This document shows, one piece after another, positions 18-28,805 of a DNA stretch of 32,000 nt. The stretch spans positions 273,272-305,271 of the forward strand of contig NZ_LT963434.1 in the NCBI RefSeq assembly GCF_900199515.1. The letters are read 5' to 3'. The notes under the pieces were generated by a model that saw nothing but the letters and a program-made list of their open reading frames with translations, did not search any database and was not told where the DNA came from. This DNA comes from Massilicoli timonensis (GTDB taxonomy: Bacteria; Bacillota_I; Bacilli_A; Erysipelotrichales; Erysipelotrichaceae). The position numbers and the translations under genes are program-made. Positions within the stretch are counted from its first letter, which is position 1, and the number at the start of each line of letters is the position of its first letter.

Positions 18-146
18 AAAAAATAACAATATTCAAATAAAGGCTTAATCAAAAGCTTTTTTTATACTTTTTTTGTCAATTTTTTAGTTTTTGTATAGCG
101 TATTGTGCCGTATTGTGTTATAATGTCGTTAGGTGGTGATCCTTCT

Positions 147-1877
147 ATGCGTATCAATATTGTCAAATCTAAGAATGCTGAACAACTCTATATTATTCAC
201 TCTTACAGAATAAACGGTAAGAATACTTCCAAAATCTATAAAAAACTTGGCTCTATGGATCAACTCCTTCCTCTTCATAACAATGATCGTGATCAGGTCC
301 TTGCCTGGGCCAAAGAGCAGGCTCGTCTTGCTACCGAACAATATGATCAAGAAAATGAAAAAGTTTCTATATCTTTTCATCCTAATCTACATATCAAGAA
401 AAATGAACAACATTCTTTTAATTGCGGTTATTTGTTTCTTCAATCTATTTGCTCTCAGCTTCGCTTCGATAATATCTTCCGCAACATGAAAACCCGTCAT
501 AACTTCACTTTCCCTATTCAATCCATCTTCTCCGATCTGATCTATTCTCGTATCCTTCATCCTTCCAGTAAAAAGAGCTCTTATGATTTCGCTCACACCT
601 TGCTGGAACAGCCTAAATATGATATCCATCATATTTACAGAGCGTTATCTATTCTCGCTCAAGAATCTGATTATATTCAATCCGAAGTTTATAAGAACTC
701 TCACTTCATTCATCATCGTAATACAAAGGTCCTTTATTATGACTGTACCAATTACTATTTTGAAATTGAAGAGGACGATGATTTAAGAAAATATGGAAAA
801 TCAAAAGAACATCGGCCAAATCCAATCGTTACGATGGGACTGTTTATGGATACCGACGGGATCCCTTTGGCTTTCGATCTGTATCCCGGTAATCAAAATG
901 AACAGAAAACATTGAAGCCTTTAGAACAGAAGATCATTCGTGATTTTGATTGCAGTGAGTTTATCTATTGCAGTGATGCCGGTCTAGGTTCTCAAGATAA
1001 TAAACTGTTCAATGATATGCAAGGACGTTCTTATGTTATTGCCCAATCCTTGAAGAAACTGAAGAAAGAAGATAGAGAAATTGCTTTGGATCCTACTCAA
1101 TTTAGAAAAGTAGGAAGTAATCGATTGATCGATTTGCGTGAATTAGACGAAAGCGATCCATCTGTTTACGGAGAGATTTATTATAAAGAAGTACCTATCG
1201 AATCAAAGAAACTATCTGAAACGATGATCGTAACCTATTCGCCTAAATATCGTGCTTATCAAGCAAATATACGTCAAAAGCAATTAGAACGAGCACAAAA
1301 ACTATTAAATACAAGCAAGAACATTAGAAAAGAGCGGAAGAACCCGAATGATCCGGCTAGATTCATAAAGAAAACATCCGTTACAGAATATGGAGAAGTC
1401 GCTGATCAAGTTATTTATGAACTAGATCAGGAAAAGATAGGACAAGAAGCAATGTATGATGGTTTCTATGCCGTTACAACGGATATAGATGGAAGCATAG
1501 AAGAAATTATTCAGATCAACCAAAGAAGATGGCAGATAGAAGAATGCTTTCGTATCATGAAAACAGAGTTTGAGGCAAGGCCGGTATATTTACAAAGAGA
1601 GGATCGGATCAAGGCGCATTTTCTGATCTGTTTCATATCACTGTTGGTTTATCGTTTACTGGAAGAAAAGTTAGATAAGGAATATAGCGTAGAACAGATC
1701 ATACATACATTACGAGAAATGAATGTATGTGAGATAGAAGGATATGGATATATACCGACTTATAAACGAACCGATCTAACAGACAAATTACATGAATTGT
1801 TTGGATTTTATACAGATACCCAGATTATCAAACAGAAGAAAATGAGAAATATTATCCACAAATCAAAGAACAGATAA
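147..1877 (+). CDS. IS1634/IS4-family DDE transposase
   Basis: 576-aa ORF starting at ATG 147, preceded by the SD-like AGGTGGTGA at 131-139. The track start at 105 lies upstream of the element's own TGtTATAAT extended -10 (116-124). Motifs are YYDCTNYYFE, YCSDAGL and a C-terminal RRWQIEECFRIMK (R-3-E-6-K signature of IS4-type transposases). The N-terminus MRINIVKSKNAEQLYIIHSYR resembles IS1634-family proteins. Confidence 0.8.
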   Translation: MRINIVKSKNAEQLYIIHSYRINGKNTSKIYKKLGSMDQLLPLHNNDRDQVLAWAKEQARLATEQYDQENEKVSISFHPNLHIKKNEQHSFNCGYLFLQSICSQLRFDNIFRNMKTRHNFTFPIQSIFSDLIYSRILHPSSKKSSYDFAHTLLEQPKYDIHHIYRALSILAQESDYIQSEVYKNSHFIHHRNTKVLYYDCTNYYFEIEEDDDLRKYGKSKEHRPNPIVTMGLFMDTDGIPLAFDLYPGNQNEQKTLKPLEQKIIRDFDCSEFIYCSDAGLGSQDNKLFNDMQGRSYVIAQSLKKLKKEDREIALDPTQFRKVGSNRLIDLRELDESDPSVYGEIYYKEVPIESKKLSETMIVTYSPKYRAYQANIRQKQLERAQKLLNTSKNIRKERKNPNDPARFIKKTSVTEYGEVADQVIYELDQEKIGQEAMYDGFYAVTTDIDGSIEEIIQINQRRWQIEECFRIMKTEFEARPVYLQREDRIKAHFLICFISLLVYRLLEEKLDKEYSVEQIIHTLREMNVCEIEGYGYIPTYKRTDLTDKLHELFGFYTDTQIIKQKKMRNIIHKSKNR

Positions 1878-2644: not shown

Positions 2645-3800
2645 ATTTTAATATTTGCAGCTCCTCTAAGATGCGTACATCGGTTTCCACCGTATTTAAC
2701 AAAGCCAGTTCATCAAAATTAAAGGTGGGATCATGCAGCGGCTGATGGAAATCGGCATCTTTGATCCCGGTATAGAAAAACAATCCTTTTGTCTGCTGCT
2801 GATAAAAACTGAAATCTTCGGCGATCATCCGTGGCGATTCCTCGATGAAATCATCTGCACAAACAGCTTTGACCAGCGTATAAAGCTGTGGATCATTTTG
2901 CACGACCGGATAGCAGTCAACGATCTTGACCTGTATGACGACCCCATGCAGCAGCTCGATCCCTTTGGCAATCTCATGGATTCGTTTTTTCATCCGTTCA
3001 TGGTCCTGATCATCAAAACTGCGCATCGTGCCTTCTAAATGCGCCTTGGCAGCCAAGGCATTGCGCGCTTCTCCTGCACGCATCGTTCCGATCGTCAAAA
3101 CAGCACTATGTGAAGGATTGAGTGAACGCGATACGATCGTTTGCAACTGCTCGACGAATGCACATCCCGCTAACAGCGCATCATTGCCGTCATGTGGCAT
3201 TGCCGCATGGGCGCCGTTTCCCAAAATATCAAAGTAAAGCTCCGATACCCGTGCCATCAAAGGCCCTGCTTTTGTTGCGATCTTCCCTTTCTCAAGATCC
3301 GGCATGACATGTGTCCCGAAGATCGCTTTGATCGGATAAGTGCGAAACAAGCCGTTTTCGATCATGATCTTCGCCCCGCCGGGGTTTTCTTCCCCGGGCT
3401 GAAAAATAAAGACGATCCCCTGCTTCAGCGCTTCTTTATGTGCGCAAAGATAAGTGATCAAAGCAAGCAGCGCTGCCATATGTCCATCATGACCGCAGGC
3501 ATGCATCCGTTCCGGATAACTGCTGACAAAGGCCGCTTTCGTTTCTTCACTGATCGGCAATGCGTCCATATCAGCACGAAAAGCGATCATTTCGGTATTT
3601 TGCTTACCATATAAGACCGCCACCAGTCCATGTTCGATAAAATCTTCCCGCAGTTCATCAATTTTCAGCTGTTCCAGCTGTTTTTTCAAATACGCCTTCG
3701 TTTCGATCGTAGCCAATCCAATTTCCGGAATCTGATGAAGCGCGCGCCGATGGCGAATCACATCTTCGCCAAGCAAAGCGATTTCTTCTCTGATCTTCAC
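2643..3800 (-). CDS. M20D-family amidohydrolase, possibly N-acetyldiaminopimelate deacetylase (DapL/YkuR-like)
   Basis: 385 aa with N-terminal RRALHQIPEIGL, HACGHDGH and GEENPGGA metal-site motifs typical of M20D aminoacylases. GTG start at 3800, 16 nt after the coaD stop. The DapL assignment is inferred from family resemblance and the presence of dapH nearby. Confidence 0.75.
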   Translation of the reverse strand: MKIREEIALLGEDVIRHRRALHQIPEIGLATIETKAYLKKQLEQLKIDELREDFIEHGLVAVLYGKQNTEMIAFRADMDALPISEETKAAFVSSYPERMHACGHDGHMAALLALITYLCAHKEALKQGIVFIFQPGEENPGGAKIMIENGLFRTYPIKAIFGTHVMPDLEKGKIATKAGPLMARVSELYFDILGNGAHAAMPHDGNDALLAGCAFVEQLQTIVSRSLNPSHSAVLTIGTMRAGEARNALAAKAHLEGTMRSFDDQDHERMKKRIHEIAKGIELLHGVVIQVKIVDCYPVVQNDPQLYTLVKAVCADDFIEESPRMIAEDFSFYQQQTKGLFFYTGIKDADFHQPLHDPTFNFDELALLNTVETDVRILEELQILK

Positions 3801-10674: not shown

Positions 10675-13103
10675 CTACTGCTCGCTTCTTCTGTTCTTGC
10701 GTAACATTGCAGCGAACACGATCACACTTCCCCCTAGCAGTACATAATACATTCCCTTGCTTACTTCATCCCCTGTATTTACTGCTTCGCTCTCCTCTTT
10801 CTTGATCTCCTCTATACTGCTTTCTCCCTTTTCCTCTTCATTTGGTGTATTCGGCTTTTCTTCCGGCTCTGTCGGTTTTTCCTCCGGTTCACTTGGTTTC
10901 TCTTCCGGATCTGTCGGCTTCTCTTCCTTCTGCCACATCACCTCAAATGTCCCAAACTCCTTGCTTCCTACCTCAAACTCCAATCCACCCTCTGTCTTTC
11001 TTACTTCTATCTCTCTCGCCTTGCTCTTTGCGATCTCTTCATCCAAAGCCTCTTCGCTCATCTGCATCGTGTAATCTCTTGTCAATCCCTCATAATACAC
11101 GACCGCAAACCGATCCCCCGCTTCGCTTCCTTCCGGATATGGATAATATACGCTTACCGTTTCCTTTTCCGTTCCTACCCATAAGTTCCCGTCATTTTGA
11201 TCGACCAGATCCAAATACCGAAACTCTCTTTTTACTTCCTTCGTTTCATCTATCCCTTTCACTGCTTCCATTCCCTTTGCATGCAGTGCTTCCATCCGTT
11301 CTGCTGATCCCAATACCTCTTCGATCAATTCATCCCATAACAGCACGATCTTCGCATCTTCATTTACCGGATACATCGTATTCCCGTTCTTATAAAACTG
11401 CGTCCCTGCTTTTACATGTGCATGTGCCTCTTTGATCTGGCATGCTCCTTCTTCTTCATATACACCCTTATAGATCTCACTGCTCAGTGTCTCTGCACTT
11501 TCATCGCTTACTTCTCTTACCTTTACTTCCCCTACTGCCATCCCTTCTTCCGGTATACTCAATATGTGTTCATCTAATCGGATCTCTTTATCATCTACTC
11601 TTGGTAATGCATACAGTGCATAGCTTCCCGCTTTCGCTGCGCTCTCTACCTTCTCTCCCTCGCTGTTTCGATATTCCCATGCAAATGGCACTCCCTCTTC
11701 TTCCAGATCCCATGCTTCTCCATCTACGCTGATCGCATAGCTTTCCAAGCCTTCTTCCCATTGCGGTTCCGGCAAGGCATCGCCATGATTGCTGGCGTCG
11801 GTTCCCGATCCTCCTTCATATGCGATCAGTTCGACTGCTTGAAGCGGTTCACTGTATCCTGCATATAAGTGCAGCGTACCGTTCGCTAATGTCGTAAAGT
11901 CGATCGTTGCTGCTTCATCAAATGGCTTCGTACATGCTTCATCTAAATACCACCCATTGAATATGCTTCCCTCTTTGCTTAGGCTAGTAGATGGGTTATT
12001 TGTTAATACGGTTGTACCGGTTAAGGTAAACTCTTGTTTTGCTTCTTCCATTGTGGAATAGATGAAATGATCTGCTCGATATACGATTATTTCACTTTCT
12101 GTATTCCCATTATTAAAAGTACCGTCATTTCCATGATATACGACTTTTGCATAGTATGGGGTTCTACCCCAGATGCTATCTGGATCATTCAATTTATTAT
12201 ATAGTTTTTCTGAATCAGATATAATGATAGATGGAATAGGAACATTTTCAGTATCCACAGAATCAAACATGTAGTCCAATTCAGTTACTATATTGTCGAA
12301 ATCAATGTTTCCTAAGTCAAAAATATATATTTTTGAGCATCCATTAAAAATATTTTCCATTCTTTTAAGTTTTCCTGTATTAAGGTTTTCGAATCCTTTT
12401 ATATTTTCTAAATTGGTGCAATAATAAAACATTTCATCCATATTAACAACATTACTTGTATCAAACACACTTAAATCTACACTTTGCAAACTTGAGCAGC
12501 CACTAAACATTCCATAGGTAGTCGTAATGCTAGTTGTATCCAGCCCACTTAAATTTACATATTTCAAATTTGTGCAATTCATAAACATCTCATACATACT
12601 AGTTATACCACTACCACTTGTATCTAGTCCGCTTAAATCTACTGATACTAATTTATAAAACTGAACCTTATCATAATTCGTTGTTGTTGGATAAAATGCG
12701 CAATCAAGAATTTGTCCTTTTGAAATCACTTTCTTATCGGTGGTTCCTACTTTCAGTGATACTAATTTATTATAGTATTTTGATGGTCTTCCAGATGGAT
12801 TCTCTATCTTGAATTTGTCAAACATATTTCCAAGAGCTGTTACGATCTCTACTGTTTTCCCTTCCTGTCCTTCAAACTCAGAAGGAATGACAACATTTAC
12901 TTGATCCCCTTTGTACTTCGTTAATGTGATCTTATCACTTGTTTCTGTATAATCCCAATCATCCAGCGTTAATCCGCCAACATCATTTTCAGAGTACTGA
13001 TTTACAGTACCCCCCCCCCCTGGGCAAAAATCATGTTCGGTTTTACTGCCATGCCTAGCATCAGGCATAGACTTGCCAAAAGCAACGATACTTTCTTTTT
13101 CAT
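10675..13103 (-). CDS. Large cell-surface protein (BspA/DUF285-type 26-residue LRR repeats, a Listeria-Bacteroides repeat and a C-terminal anchor), frameshifted at a poly-G tract
   Basis: SD GAAGGAGG and ATG 13103 encode the signal peptide MKKKVSLLLASLCLMLGMAVKPNMIFAQ, which runs into G11 and stops at 13002. The 797-aa body ORF (10675-13068) uses the neighbouring frame. The body has repeats of the MFxxCxxLxxVDLSxxDTS type, then IFNGWYLDEACTKPFD...LHLYAGY, an acidic region, EEKPxxP repeats, and a hydrophobic segment with a basic tail. Confidence 0.8.
10840..10935 (-). repeat. Tandem 24-bp (8-aa) coding repeats, EEKP(T/S/N)(D/E/T)P, about 4 copies
   Basis: The protein reads EEKPTDPEEKPSEPEEKPTEPEEKPNTPNEEEK. 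On the + strand the DNA shows a reiterated TTCYTCCGGNTCNNTNGGYTT unit. Confidence 0.75.
12259..12723 (-). repeat. About 5-6 degenerate 26-residue LRR units (protein-level repeat)
   Basis: Reiterated pattern: LSGLDTSGSGITSMYEMFMNCTNLKYVN / LSGLDTTSITTTYGMFSGCSSLQSVD / LSVFDTSNVVNMDEMFYYCTNLENI. Confidence 0.7.
13010..13020 (-). repeat. Homopolymeric G11 tract (C11 on the + strand) at the signal-peptide/mature-protein junction
   Basis: Counted directly: c at 13010 plus ten c at 13011-13020. 12 or 9 G would put the signal peptide in frame with the body ORF. Confidence 0.95.
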
Positions 13104-13158
13104 CTTTTTCCTCCTTCTCGTCTGTTTCCTTTTACAGACGCTATCTTTGCTTGTTTAC

Positions 13159-13187
13159 ACTATACCATATTTTCCCATATTTATCTA
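13159..13187 (-). promoter_or_regulatory. Putative extended -10 promoter of the LRR gene
   Basis: The minus strand reads TGgTATAGT (-10 at 13159-13164, TG at 13166-13167) with a weak -35 TAGATA (13182-13187). A 7-bp hairpin CGTCTGT (13119-13125) / ACAGACG (13134-13140) sits next to the SD in the 5' UTR. Confidence 0.45.
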
Positions 13188-25075: not shown

Positions 25076-25852
25076 CTATTCAAACTGCTTTTTCAATGCC
25101 GCGATGGCGTTTTTTTCCAGCCTTGAAACCTGCGCCTGTGAAATACCAAGCTCTTGTGCGATCTCAACCTGTGTCATATCCTGAAAATAGCGTTTGCGAA
25201 TGATATCGCTCTCTTTTTCACTCAATGTCCGCATACTTTTGCGCAGCGTCATGATATTACACAGCTTGCCGATCTCATCATGCTCGTCTTTTACCTGATC
25301 GATCAAATATAATTCATCGCCGTCATGATTATAGATCGGTTCATAGATCGAAAGTACGCTTTGGATCGAATCAAACGCATCCTCAATATCCTTCACCTTC
25401 ACTTGCAGCTTTTCTGCCAGCCACTGGTTAGTCGGTTCTTGCTGATGTTGTTGCAGGTAGCGCTCTTTTTCCTGCATCGCCTTATAAGCGAGATCTTTCA
25501 GATGCCGAGAAATGCGGATCACGCTATTGTCTCTTAAATAACGCTTGATCTCACCGACGATCATCGGCACCGCATAAGTGGAAAAGCGCACTTCATGCTT
25601 CAGATCAAAATGATCGATCGATTTGATCAGCCCGATGCAGCCGACCTGAAACAGATCATCCATATTCTCACAGCGAGATGAAAAACGCTGTACGATCGAC
25701 AGCACTAATTTCAGATTTCCGTTCATCAGTTTTTCTTTGGCGCTTTCATCCCCCGCCTGCAGTTTCAAAAACAGTTCCTTCATTTCCTCATTGGATAAAA
25801 CACGCAGCGACGATGTCGTAATACCGCTGATCTCCACTTTATAGCGACTCAT
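25076..25852 (-). CDS. sigG: Sporulation sigma factor SigG
   Basis: The N-terminus KVEISGITTSSLRVLSNEEMKELF...NGNLKLVLSIVQRF is close to my recollection of B. subtilis SigG. It lies immediately after sigE. Confidence 0.9.
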   Translation of the reverse strand: MSRYKVEISGITTSSLRVLSNEEMKELFLKLQAGDESAKEKLMNGNLKLVLSIVQRFSSRCENMDDLFQVGCIGLIKSIDHFDLKHEVRFSTYAVPMIVGEIKRYLRDNSVIRISRHLKDLAYKAMQEKERYLQQHQQEPTNQWLAEKLQVKVKDIEDAFDSIQSVLSIYEPIYNHDGDELYLIDQVKDEHDEIGKLCNIMTLRKSMRTLSEKESDIIRKRYFQDMTQVEIAQELGISQAQVSRLEKNAIAALKKQFE

Positions 25853-25924: not shown

Positions 25925-26620
25925 CTAGTCTTGGTGCATCGTCGTTTTTAATTTTGCCAAGATCCGCTTTTCCAGGCGGGAAATATACGACTGTGAAATG
26001 CCCAAACGATCCGCAATGTCTTTTTGGGTCAGCTCTTCGTGATCGATCCCATAGCGCATCTGTAAGATCAGCCGTTCGCGCTCCTTTAACGTGCTCATCG
26101 CCTTTAACAGCTCTCTGCGGTTTTCATTCTTTTCAAATTCTTTTGTTACCAGATCATCATCGGTACCGATGATATCCGATAGCAACAACTCATTGCCGTC
26201 ATAATCGACATTTAACGGTTCATCAAAGGATACCTCGGCTTTGCGCCGGTTTTTCTTGCGCAGAAACATCAGGATCTCATTTTCGATACAGCGGGAAGCA
26301 TATGTAACCAGCTTGATATTCTTATCCCGCTTAAAGGTATTGACCGCCTTGATCAAGCCAATGCTGCCGATGCTGATCAGATCCTCCATAAAGATCGGAT
26401 TGGTCTCATAACGCTTGGCGATATAGACGACTAACCGCAGGTTGTGTTCGATCAATTTATTGCGCGCTGCTTCATCGCCGTTTTCAAAAGCGATCAGCGT
26501 TTCCCGTTCTTCCTCTTTGGAAAGCGGCTGCGGGAGCGCTTCACTTCCCTGCAAATACGCGACGCTGTGCAGATCTTTTTTATGAAATAGCCATTTCCAA
26601 ATACGCATCCATCGTTTCAT
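25925..26620 (-). CDS. sigE: Sporulation sigma factor SigE (pro-sigma-E)
   Basis: [17 protein letters not shown]...[12 protein letters not shown] matches pro-SigE, including an N-terminal pro-sequence. SD GAGGTGA lies within the spoIIGA 3' end. Confidence 0.92.
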
Positions 26621-26624
26621 ATGT

Positions 26625-27362
26625 TCACCTCACCATAAATATATTGCGATTCAAAATACAAGCCGCACCCAGTTCTTTGGATATCGTCTTTTCTACATTG
26701 ACATATACCTTCGCGCATATGCCGTTTTCCAATTTGATCCGCGCTTCATACACCCTTGTGATCTCGACCCCGCTCACACTGTGCAAAATGACCAGATCGA
26801 CCTGTGAAGCAGTAAAATAGGAGCAATAGCGCTGATCTAAAAAAATAATGGGAATCTGATGATAAGTCGCCAGATTGCCGCTGTCCAAGTATCCGATCAG
26901 CTTCAGCTTTGTATCTGCCGTATAAAGCGTAAATGGATAACTGTACTGCATCGCACATAGAAACAATTTGCCATTCGCAAACAAAAATACCAGACCGAGC
27001 AATAAAACCACCCAAAACAAAATGATTTCACAGCGCATCGGCACAAAGTAGAGCAGATTGTGAAAACTGCCCTTCAAAAAAGCATATTCCGCAAAGGACA
27101 AAAGCATGCGTATGGTATATGCGAACACGTAGCATTTCATATGCCAGCGAAAAATCGAAAAAAACAAAATGACCTCCATGGCGATCATAAACCATAAGCT
27201 CCAATCATTCCAAAGCACTACACCAAACAAGGTAATAAACAGCGTATAAATGAGCATCTTGCGCCATGACAGCGGCTGAATGGACAGATAGGACGCTGTG
27301 CATAAGGAAAATAAGATCACGATCACGGCATTCAGCCAAGTAACCTCCAAATAACTGTCCAC
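26625..27362 (-). CDS. spoIIGA: Sigma-E processing peptidase SpoIIGA
   Basis: Five N-terminal TM helices and a C-terminal aspartic protease motif GYLDSGN. It lies directly upstream of sigE. Confidence 0.82.
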
Positions 27363-27504: not shown

Positions 27505-28152
27505 TTATAACCATTCACTGTGTTTTGCCAAACGGATCAAAACGATATGCAGAAGCAGACAAAGGATCACCATAATGATGAGATACGTCTGAAGAGACAG
27601 AAACTTATTGACGATAAAAGATTGAAATAAAACCAAAAGCCCGCCGAGCAAAGCATTAAAACTTTTGCGGTTTTTCTCAAAGCGCTTCGGCAGCGGTATC
27701 AGATCGAGCCATAAATTCGCGCTCATAAAGGTAAGAAAGATCAAATGTAAGGAAACGATCACCTGAATGACGTTTTCCCACAACAAGCCGGTCTCATAAA
27801 GTACAGGAAGCCCCAGAAACGCAGTCATGACAAAGACCATGGAAATGAATAAAGTAACGATGCTGTTTAACAAGATCGAAGCATAAATACGTTTTTTCAA
27901 GGATACCGGTATACATTTCAGAAAGCGGTTCTTGCCGCTGTACCATGTATTCTGTACCTTCTCCACGCTGATCCAGCCGATCAGATACTCAAGCATGAGC
28001 ATGATCGTTAATACCAGCACCGTCTGTTCATAAGAACGATCCTGTGCCGATGCAATGAGAAAAAGCGATCCCAGCAGATGAATTCCGAAAATGATCAGCA
28101 GCGGTGATTTTAATTTATGCAGATCATAGCGTAAAAAAGCAAGCATCCTCAT
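27505..28152 (-). CDS. Polytopic membrane protein, putative permease partner 2 of the YtrA-type ABC module
   Basis: 215 aa with about 6 hydrophobic segments and no recognised motif. Its start overlaps the upstream stop by 4 nt (ATGA), consistent with translational coupling. Confidence 0.6.
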   Translation of the reverse strand: MRMLAFLRYDLHKLKSPLLIIFGIHLLGSLFLIASAQDRSYEQTVLVLTIMLMLEYLIGWISVEKVQNTWYSGKNRFLKCIPVSLKKRIYASILLNSIVTLFISMVFVMTAFLGLPVLYETGLLWENVIQVIVSLHLIFLTFMSANLWLDLIPLPKRFEKNRKSFNALLGGLLVLFQSFIVNKFLSLQTYLIIMVILCLLLHIVLIRLAKHSEWL

Positions 28153-28805
28153 CCCTCCTTATGAAACTGATAAAAGAACATGCCAAGCAATAGGAGCAGC
28201 ACACACCCAAATAAGATCAAAGCGATCGCATGTGAAGCAAACAGATTCATTCCGCCAAAGATCAGGATCAGACACACCGCTTCTGCTGTGATCATGATCG
28301 TTTCTCTATGCACGGCAGTAAACTCTTTCAGATAAACAAAAAGCAGTTGCAGCACCATCACGGCAATTGATACATGAACGAATTGTTCCACCAGCCAAAC
28401 CGGAAATTTCCGATCCGCAAAATTACTGAGAAGTCCTTGTTCATGTCCGCATAAATACAGGATCATATGCGTTAGCAGCAGCGTTACGATCAAAATAATA
28501 ACGCTATTCACTAAGATCAAAGACATTTTCCAAAGGACGATCTGATGTTTTCCGGCAACGATCAAAGACCGCCGCTTTGCTAATTTGCCCGCATACAGGC
28601 TGCGCCATAAAAGCATTGCCGCCGCATGCAGCAGCAACATCACCAACAGCGGTATCACAATGGCATCCGCACCGTCTGCGTGATCGCTTCGATACTGCGG
28701 CTGCATGAAATAAAACGATGCGATCACAAACAAAATAATCCATACACCACCATAGGCAAGAAGAAAGGAACGCAGCTGCCGCCACTCATAAACCAACCAT
28801 TTCAT
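28149..28805 (-). CDS. Polytopic membrane protein, putative permease partner 1 of the YtrA-type ABC module
   Basis: 218 aa with about 6 hydrophobic segments. The N-terminus MKWLVYEWRQLRS resembles MRMLAFLRYDLHKLKS of the downstream protein, suggesting they are paralogues. Confidence 0.6.
   Translation of the reverse strand: MKWLVYEWRQLRSFLLAYGGVWIILFVIASFYFMQPQYRSDHADGADAIVIPLLVMLLLHAAAMLLWRSLYAGKLAKRRSLIVAGKHQIVLWKMSLILVNSVIILIVTLLLTHMILYLCGHEQGLLSNFADRKFPVWLVEQFVHVSIAVMVLQLLFVYLKEFTAVHRETIMITAEAVCLILIFGGMNLFASHAIALILFGCVLLLLLGMFFYQFHKEG

Follow-up and report, generated by a model that had tools for sequence, protein, structure and literature searches.

The window analysed here is a stretch of 32,000 nucleotides (nt) from Massilicoli timonensis (contig NZ_LT963434.1, positions 273,272 to 305,271), whose minus strand carries a gene for a predicted surface protein in which signal peptide and body lie in different reading frames on either side of a run of 11 G. 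Read directly from the sequence, this strand shows a Shine-Dalgarno (SD) sequence, GAAGGAGG, at 13117-13110, a spacer of 6 nt and the start codon ATG 13103. The open reading frame (ORF) that begins here (13103-13002; MKKKVSLLLASLCLMLGMAVKPNMIFAQGGGVL, 33 residues) reads MKKKVSLLLASLCLMLGMAVKPNMIFAQ, enters the tract at 13020-13010 and ends at the stop codon TAA 13004-13002. The body ORF of 797 codons (10675-13068) reads the tract in the other frame as ..HDFCPGGGGTVNQ.. (..FCPGGGGTVNQ..), and its ATG at 13068 lacks a purine-rich SD upstream. Every coordinate given for the signal-peptide ORF in the original prediction proved correct; the claim that the body lies in the other frame and has no SD of its own is likewise borne out by the minus-strand reading and the ORF listing. 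In the fused gene of 809 codons the tract would fall at codon 28/29, in the 5' part of the reading frame, and its 11 G exceed the length of about 7 G or C from which such repeats are hypermutable. The features of the junction, all on the minus strand, are as follows.

13159..13187, minus strand: promoter-like site of a 5' cassette shared with paralogues, TAGATA, 17 nt and a TG-extended TATAGT (consensus scan; presumed function)
13119..13140, minus strand: hairpin in the 5' untranslated region (5'UTR), CGUCUGU-(8 nt)-ACAGACG, with its 3' end two bases before the SD (scan and fold)
13110..13117, minus strand: SD sequence GAAGGAGG, 6 nt 5' of ATG 13103 (direct reading)
13002..13103, minus strand: signal-peptide ORF, a dead-end product at 11 G, with a 28-residue Sec-type signal MKKKVSLLLASLCLMLGMAVKPNMIFA/Q, then GGGVL and TAA
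13010..13020, minus strand: poly-G tract of 11 G, the proposed slipped-strand switch, in which multiples of 3 (9, 12) correspond to ON
12992..13012, minus strand: hairpin abutting the tract, gGGUACUG-UAAAU-CAGUACUC (RNA fold)
10675..13068, minus strand: body ORF, 797 codons as listed, with the mature protein from ACT 13008 (TVNQYSE...)

When the gene was rebuilt in silico with 9, 10, 11, 12 or 13 G, ORFs of 808, 37, 33, 809 and 38 codons were obtained, respectively. Signal and body were fused only at 9 and 12 G, which agrees with the expectation, voiced in the original prediction, that 12 or 9 G would give one protein of about 809 residues. In other words, a change in repeat number toggles between a full-length and a truncated product, as translation of the rebuilt genes demonstrates. 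The body ORF has no internal stop, and the window allele carries no further lesion. The count of 11 G in the window is that of an assembly consensus; a 99% identical allele from an independent assembly (with a SPAdes-style contig name) has 10 G and is likewise out of frame. The tract is far outside chance expectation. It is the only run of G or C of at least 6 nt in the window, C-runs of at least 11 nt are expected 0.002 times per 32-kb window under a first-order Markov model, and in about 107 kb of related DNA the runs of G or C of at least 7 nt are exclusively the homologous tracts.

It had been suggested in the original prediction that tract length be compared among homologues. The DNA comparison comprised 13 sequences, the window and 12 further loci, with the following tract lengths.

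7 G: L007, L015
7 G and an extra T: L003
8 G: L006
9 G, uninterrupted: L018
10 G: L001, L002, L004, L005, L008, L016
11 G: the window
12 G, uninterrupted: L017

Both ON and OFF lengths are thus represented, and they occur within nearly identical flanks. The window and L001 show no mismatch in 1,140 flanking nt and have 11 and 10 G; L003 and L016 differ by one mismatch in 1,015 nt and have 7G+TT and 10G+T. Copies of the same locus with flanks at least 98.5% identical have 11, 10, 10 and 7 G at pheT, and 10, 10 and 12 G at the Fic/thiolase locus.

For a larger set of homologues the tract length was inferred from the called N-termini of the proteins, each rule having been checked against at least one DNA locus. 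The N-termini MPRGGTVNQ, ..FCPGGGTVNQ, MKKK..AQGGGTVNQ, MPRGGGTVNQ, ..FCPGGGGTVNQ and MKKK..AQGGGGTVNQ stand for 7, 8, 9, 10, 11 and 12 G, in that order. The resulting spectrum covers 113 distinct homologous proteins on 465 contigs.

7 G: 3 distinct proteins, 127 contigs
8 G: 10 distinct proteins, 22 contigs
9 G: 6 distinct proteins, 16 contigs
10 G: 59 distinct proteins, 205 contigs
11 G: 31 distinct proteins, 90 contigs
12 G: 4 distinct proteins, 5 contigs

The ten in-frame sequences belong to at least six paralogue clusters, and all of them carry exactly the signal-Gly(3-4)-TVNQ fusion that had been predicted. These 9-G and 12-G proteins include P0146, P0165, P0220, P0230 and P0250, and one in-frame sequence is an NCBI protein record (WP_) named Massilicoli timonensis. 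A single metagenome sample contained a Fic-locus copy in the ON state (L017, 12 G) together with a pheT-locus copy in the OFF state (L015, 7 G). Dead-end peptides were called on many metagenome contigs, with 33 residues at 11 G, 37 at 10 G and 36 at 7 G. A homology search with the ON-state N-terminus found five clusters, none with an ON representative; ON forms were seen only among the listed members of clusters.

The body has been preserved in spite of the prevalence of out-of-frame tracts. The ratio of nonsynonymous to synonymous substitution rates (dN/dS, Nei-Gojobori) was 0.07-0.20 for the C-terminal 439 codons in 28 of 28 pairs, and 0.19-0.50 for the N-terminal leucine-rich repeat (LRR) part, where dS is saturated. 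In about 100 distinct sequences, ORFs of 470-960 codons have stayed open past the tract. Judged by these measures, purifying selection acts on the body. In P0025, a distant homologue, signal peptide and body are joined straight to each other without any G tract, from which it follows that the fused form is the functional architecture.

The explanation we favour, at a probability of roughly 0.75, is that these genes are a slipped-strand phase-variable (contingency) family of surface proteins in Massilicoli timonensis and that the window copy is OFF. Slipped-strand mispairing during replication would add or remove G's. Tracts of 9 or 12 G bring signal and body into one frame in translation, and a secreted, surface-anchored protein of about 809 residues with a short Gly linker at its new N-terminus would be produced. 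Translation from the only good SD stops after 32-37 codons at 7, 8, 10 or 11 G; these lengths would be OFF because translation runs into a dead end and the body has neither an SD nor a signal of its own. The window copy, with its 11 G, would be one G insertion away from ON. The plan common to the paralogues is a cassette with the tract at the presumed signal-peptidase site, a variable DUF285/PARCEL LRR domain, and a conserved C-terminal region with a putative wall or membrane anchor. If the loci switch independently, a population might display differing combinations of LRR variants. In gut populations the majority of the copies are in the silent state as far as the consensus is concerned. The homopolymer switch at the signal/body junction, now OFF, that was put forward in the original prediction is supported by the variation from 7 to 12 G, the in-frame alleles and the purifying selection. 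Switching within a population and its phenotype are what we infer from these observations and from the frame logic.

Several points weigh against phase variation. Only 10 of the 113 distinct sequences (8.8%) and 21 of the 465 contigs (4.5%) are in frame, compared with the third that would be expected for random lengths; the binomial p for this deficit is about 1e-9, for observations that are not independent of one another. In the length spectrum 9 G is a low point flanked by 8 G and 10 G. Phase variation needs extra assumptions to account for the deficit: ON cells might be selected against in the gut, mutation might be biased toward 10-11 G, or few copies might be ON at a time, a given copy being expressed by a minority of cells. 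Part of the distinction between 10 and 11 G could, moreover, reflect homopolymer errors in sequencing or assembly. At the pheT locus, the allele met most often in metagenomes has both a 7-G tract and an in-frame TGA (L015 4917-4919, syntenic with about 12700 in the window), so that DSLY is followed by a stop where the paralogues have QR. The 106-residue fragment P0173, which represents this 7-G nonsense allele, is found on 125 contigs, and the truncated DSLY-stop allele also occurs with 8, 10 and 11 G. L006 (about 3550-3760, minus strand) is a degenerate copy in which unrelated sequence stands in place of promoter, SD and ATG; it has an extra T in the signal-peptide region, an 8-G tract and a frameshifted body (P0124, 59 residues). 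To judge from such lesions, some individual copies are decaying or lost. Finally, the support comes from consensus assemblies and consists of variation between samples, while phase variation is defined by heterogeneity within a population and by reversibility.

It might be asked whether the frame is restored during expression, instead of or on top of a switch in the DNA. RNA polymerase could slip, or ribosomes could shift frame, at tracts of 10 or 11 G, possibly helped by a hairpin, and the length of the tract would tune the level of product. Long homopolymers are known sites of RNA-polymerase slippage. Of the 113 sequences, 90 have 10 or 11 G and are thus one nucleotide away from the reading frame, in-frame lengths are under-represented, and purifying selection acts on the body even though most alleles are out of frame; all of this would suit such recoding. 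A fold of 12960-13165 (206 nt) gave a z-score of -3.8, and both the minimum free energy and the centroid structure contained a stem abutting the tract. This hairpin (12992-13012) has 8-9 bp, begins within the tract by using its last 2-3 G, and holds the dead-end TAA in its loop. Its sequence is invariant in the 12 other tract-carrying loci except for a change of TAC to TAT in L018, which converts a G-C pair to G.U. Conservation of the hairpin is, however, confounded by coding constraint on TVNQYS, whose conserved codons it overlaps; it may be relevant to slippage or recoding. There is almost no spacer between tract and hairpin, and an Rfam search around the tract gave nothing credible. Programmed recoding calls for a slippery site of fixed length and a single non-zero frame. 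The tracts of 7, 8, 10 and 11 G span both non-zero frames (10 G needs a +1 and 11 G a -1 shift), so no single programmed shift fits, and the lengths of 9 and 12 G are in frame, with in-frame alleles found at several loci. We consider recoding unlikely. It would turn the genes into heritable rheostats, in which G run and hairpin promote slippage and every cell makes a small amount of surface protein that depends on tract length, a doubtful proposition by our estimate. If true, it would account for the finding that genes under strong constraint are nearly always out of frame, 10 and 11 G making up about 80% of the distinct sequences.

A second alternative to phase variation is that the window copy is an ordinary pseudogene, closed by a dead-end frameshift in a decaying family, and that the length differences are neutral indel noise in a mutable run. 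The fact that 91% of the sequences are out of frame would be accounted for in this way, as would the wide distribution of the nonsense allele at the syntenic locus (P0173 on its 125 contigs, TGA in L015) and the state of L006, without promoter or ATG and with a frameshift in the signal-peptide region. Set against this are the dN/dS ratios (0.07-0.20 in the C-terminal region for all pairs, below 0.5 in the LRR region), the long ORFs past the tract in about 100 distinct sequences, the in-frame alleles at several loci, and the preservation of promoter, SD and signal peptide nearly base for base. The original prediction held that disabling mutations in orthologues would speak for a plain pseudogene. 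One common allele at the locus does have such a mutation, the in-frame TGA, whereas the window allele and most others are free of them. A dN/dS near 1 or further lesions, as expected of pseudogenes, were encountered only in the DSLY-stop allele and the L006 remnant, and we regard this explanation of the family as very unlikely, less probable still than recoding. The least probable account is a homopolymer assembly error that hides a true run of 12 (or 9) G in an intact gene without any switch: several sequencing platforms make errors in long G runs, and breaks from a few to about 140 bases from the tract occur in contigs of other assemblies (L001, L002, L016), but hundreds of independent contigs, from metagenomes and an NCBI isolate-genome assembly, have out-of-frame lengths, 7 and 8 G (the 7-G allele on 125 contigs) are too distant from 9 or 12 for single-base miscalls of one true length, the same assembly collection (SPAdes-style names) gives 12 G and 7 G at two loci of one sample, and the breaks are accounted for by the repeated 5' cassette.

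The product of the fused gene is a predicted DUF285/PARCEL (BspA-type LRR) surface protein. The following features, again on the minus strand, were recognised in the body.

12244..12603, minus strand: DUF285/PARCEL (BspA-type LRR) repeat region (Pfam PF03382, NCBIfam TIGR02167)
11899..12000, minus strand: segment resembling the Listeria-Bacteroides repeat (Flg_new; Pfam PF09479, 23.2 bits, under the cut-off of 27)
10851..10927, minus strand: in-frame 21-nt tandem repeat, 3.7 copies encoding PEEKP[ST]E heptads of a Pro/Glu-rich stalk (Tandem Repeats Finder)
10678..10788, minus strand: C-terminal anchor, with AVNTGD, the hydrophobic helix MYYVLLGGSVIVFAAML and the basic tail RKNRRSEQ (translation)

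With the fused protein as query, Pfam PF03382 (DUF285) scored 64.3 bits (cut-off 25) and NCBIfam TIGR02167, 'PARCEL repeat-containing surface protein', 58.1 bits (cut-off 30); LRR_5 (BspA-type) was slightly under its cut-off with 25.6 bits. The Flg_new family also appears in the precomputed matches of homologues, whose database name is 'BspA family leucine-rich repeat surface protein'. In an AlphaFold2 model, confidence was high over mature residues 1-385, folded as a repeat solenoid and a beta domain, while the predicted local distance difference test score (pLDDT) stayed below 50 for residues 387-700 in the conserved C-terminal region. In a Foldseek comparison no PDB entry matched at E<=1e-3, and similarity was limited to weak hits among LRR ectodomains. 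The stalk repeat exists in homologues in versions of 10, 24 or 31 residues, roughly 1, 3 or 4 heptads, and this comparison shows that the 21-nt repeat would add size variation of the stalk to the presumed phase variation.

The signal peptide was assigned by inspection (MKKK, a hydrophobic core of 16 residues, IFA/Q), and the C-terminus has a transmembrane helix with a basic tail. A lipoprotein signal was considered for the Cys at residue 13, but this is preceded by A-S-L and there is no lipobox, and the idea was rejected. The internal start MNVVIPSEF chosen by some gene callers was discarded as well; the corresponding codon in the window is GTA, which is no start, and the product would be without a signal peptide. 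The anchor motif is kept in all family members as [AT]V[NH]TGD (AVHTGD or TVHTGD in paralogues). One source names a family member 'LPXTG cell wall anchor domain protein', and the NCBIfam search of the fused protein gave no match to LPXTG anchor models at E<=0.1. The anchor thus does not appear to be canonical LPXTG, and dependence on sortase would have to be presumed. The cell-surface anchor of the original prediction stands as far as [AT]V[NH]TGD, helix and basic tail are concerned; a canonical LPXTG motif and a match to an anchor model are lacking. We take AVNTGD to be, possibly, a non-canonical sortase signal similar to the clostridial NVQTG.

The body ORF is identical to protein P0126, one of at least five family members on one genome (P0126, P0008, P0009, P0178 and P0251), a paralogue number that rests on protein records. 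An alignment of 11 sequences revealed that homology between paralogues starts about 100 nt 5' of the ATG, and that the order of elements is shared: a promoter-like TAGATA-17-TGgTATAGT, a 5'UTR hairpin of 7 bp, the SD, the signal peptide, the G tract and about 60 mature codons. Paralogues in at least five genomic contexts begin with this cassette, which is about 300 nt long, and the promoter-like site is conserved in all of these contexts; homology between contexts starts just 5' of that site, and further upstream the sequences are unrelated. The contexts are listed here.

pheT locus: the window, L004, L015 and probably L001
hydrogenase/arylsulfotransferase locus: L003, L007, L016
phosphotransferase system (PTS)/BglG-Fic/thiolase locus: L002, L005, L017
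glycogen-phosphorylase locus: L018
one further context: L008

In the window the neighbours are housekeeping genes, pheS and pheT upstream and genes for a metallophosphoesterase and a DapD-like acetyltransferase downstream. Promoter, SD and signal peptide of the paralogues are conserved almost base for base, the SD being invariant in all loci with an intact 5' cassette. In the 5'UTR hairpin the stem is conserved and the loop varies between paralogues. L018 (about 2965-2986) has CGTTTGT/ACAAACG, a compensatory double change in the stem, which suggests that the stem may be a functional RNA element, for example one that affects mRNA stability. A run of A's between SD and ATG (13105-13109) has 5 A in the window and L001 and 4 A in all other paralogues, and constitutes a second, shorter variable homopolymer in the region of translation initiation.

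The N-terminal LRR part has strongly diverged between paralogues, and the C-terminal part of about 440 residues is nearly identical. L004 and L017, from different samples, have the same type of LRR body (cluster 5), the former at the pheT and the latter at the Fic locus, and the Fic locus holds three different bodies in L002, L005 and L017. Between the window and L001 there is no difference over 338 N-terminal codons, and 22 sites are different among the C-terminal 439 codons. These patterns suggest that LRR bodies are moved among loci by recombination or gene conversion between the conserved ends of paralogues.

In three independent assemblies the contig starts near the cassette and tract, 140 (L001), 36 (L002) and 15 (L016) bases upstream of the tract. 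We had considered these breaks as a sign of heterogeneous reads, an idea that was rejected since they are explained by the multicopy 5' cassette. The cassette probably breaks short-read assemblies, and the genes are therefore often annotated as partial or N-terminally truncated. This has consequences for annotation practice: such genes are listed as N-terminally truncated 'intact' proteins or as fragments (P0178 has a wrong-frame beginning, MPD..., and for P0008 an internal codon is taken as the start). An exact-pattern scan of the genome collection with the tract flanks gave no match, and when its proteins were searched with the conserved C-terminal region, the only matches were distant Flg_new-type relatives from other genera.

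In pilC of Neisseria gonorrhoeae, a classic case, a run of G within the part that encodes the signal peptide, or directly behind it, causes frameshifts by which an adhesion or surface protein is turned ON and OFF. That system belongs to a Gram-negative phylum and concerns an unrelated protein encoded in two copies, whereas Massilicoli has a family with a shared cassette. In the Vlp genes of Mycoplasma hyorhinis the tract is poly-A in the promoter spacer and acts on transcription. The Massilicoli tract would act on translation instead, and its repeat is the 21-nt Pro/Glu heptad of the stalk. The work of Rosengarten & Wise, cited in PMC11868660, described combined phase and size variation of the Vlp surface lipoproteins; the two systems are alike in joining a homopolymer ON/OFF switch to in-frame tandem-repeat size variation in a multigene surface family. 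The poly-G/C phasome of Campylobacter jejuni has tracts of about 8-12 nt at many loci and combinatorial phasotypes (PMC6321876, PMC8437040, PMC8355987). G/C homopolymers, many loci per genome and the gut as habitat are common to both; in Campylobacter, however, the genes mostly encode glycan-modifying enzymes and the position of the tract varies, while in Massilicoli it is fixed within one adhesin-like family.

The closest parallels lie among the mycoplasmas. Candidatus Mycoplasma girerdii has about 28 BspA-like genes, 8 of them with length-variable simple sequence repeats (SSRs) and often OFF in the consensus (Costello et al. 2017, PMC5476646). As in Massilicoli, there is a large BspA-type LRR family with length-variable SSRs in or near the genes, a consensus that is often OFF beside minority ON variants, and evidence from metagenomes. 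In girerdii, however, the repeats are mostly dinucleotides, and read-level heterogeneity was measured; Massilicoli has a homopolymer, placed at the signal-peptide junction, with variation between samples only. Nearer still, a poly-G SSR in the N-terminal part of the coding sequence of mycoplasma PARCEL (DUF285/TIGR02167) surface proteins, with frameshift ON/OFF switching predicted by manual curation, was described in 2010 (PMC2996958), and contingency tracts 5' of PARCEL genes in M. capricolum are given in the same source. Repeat family, poly-G, N-terminal position and multiple paralogues per genome are the same as in Massilicoli, and the lineages are related (Mollicutes and Erysipelotrichia, both Bacillota-derived). 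Massilicoli differs in being a walled gut commensal with the standard genetic code, in having a predicted signal for Sec and signal peptidase I (SPase-I) rather than a lipobox, in its presumed C-terminal anchoring, in the identical promoter-to-tract cassette of its paralogues and in the metagenomic length spectrum.

A homopolymer contingency switch on PARCEL/BspA surface proteins is, then, already known; what is unusual here is the host, a walled commensal of the human gut, the cassette shared by the family and the strongly OFF-biased spectrum. The original prediction had called such switches rarely described in spore-forming Firmicutes. A full-text literature search found no paper linking Erysipelotrichaceae or Massilicoli with phase variation, but the claim has to be restricted in view of the precedents in the same protein family (PMC2996958) and in a neighbouring lineage (PMC5476646).

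What is understood of phase variation by SSRs comes mainly from pathogens (Neisseria, Haemophilus, Campylobacter, Helicobacter and mycoplasmas), and work on gut commensals has centred on invertible promoters. Massilicoli might offer a tractable model of surface variation in commensal Bacillota under pressure from immunoglobulin A (IgA) or phages, and also one for the evolutionary link between the variable surface proteins of mycoplasmas and their walled relatives.

The description of the host as spore-forming in the original prediction is at odds with that of the species, which is said to be non-spore-forming and Gram-negative-staining (PMC6796691), although SigE- and SigG-like genes are present in the window. 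These are two adjacent genes, at 25076-25852 and 25925-26620 (both minus strand), whose best matches, SigG and SigE respectively, score slightly under the equivalog cut-offs. They lie upstream of sepF, ylmH, divIVA and ileS, as in spore formers. Three minus-strand ORFs of 215-245 residues (26625-27362, 27505-28152 and 28149-28805) without Pfam or NCBIfam match are located between an ATP-binding cassette (ABC) transporter ATPase gene and the sigE-like gene, the first of them at the position expected for spoIIGA. The genome figures disagree: the species description gives 3.12 Mb and 53% G+C (PMC6796691), whereas the window has 44% G+C and the M. timonensis contig is 2.09 Mb long. At the edge of the window, an ORF of 590 residues (105-1877, plus strand) contains a DDE transposase domain (PF01609) and points to an insertion sequence (IS) element.

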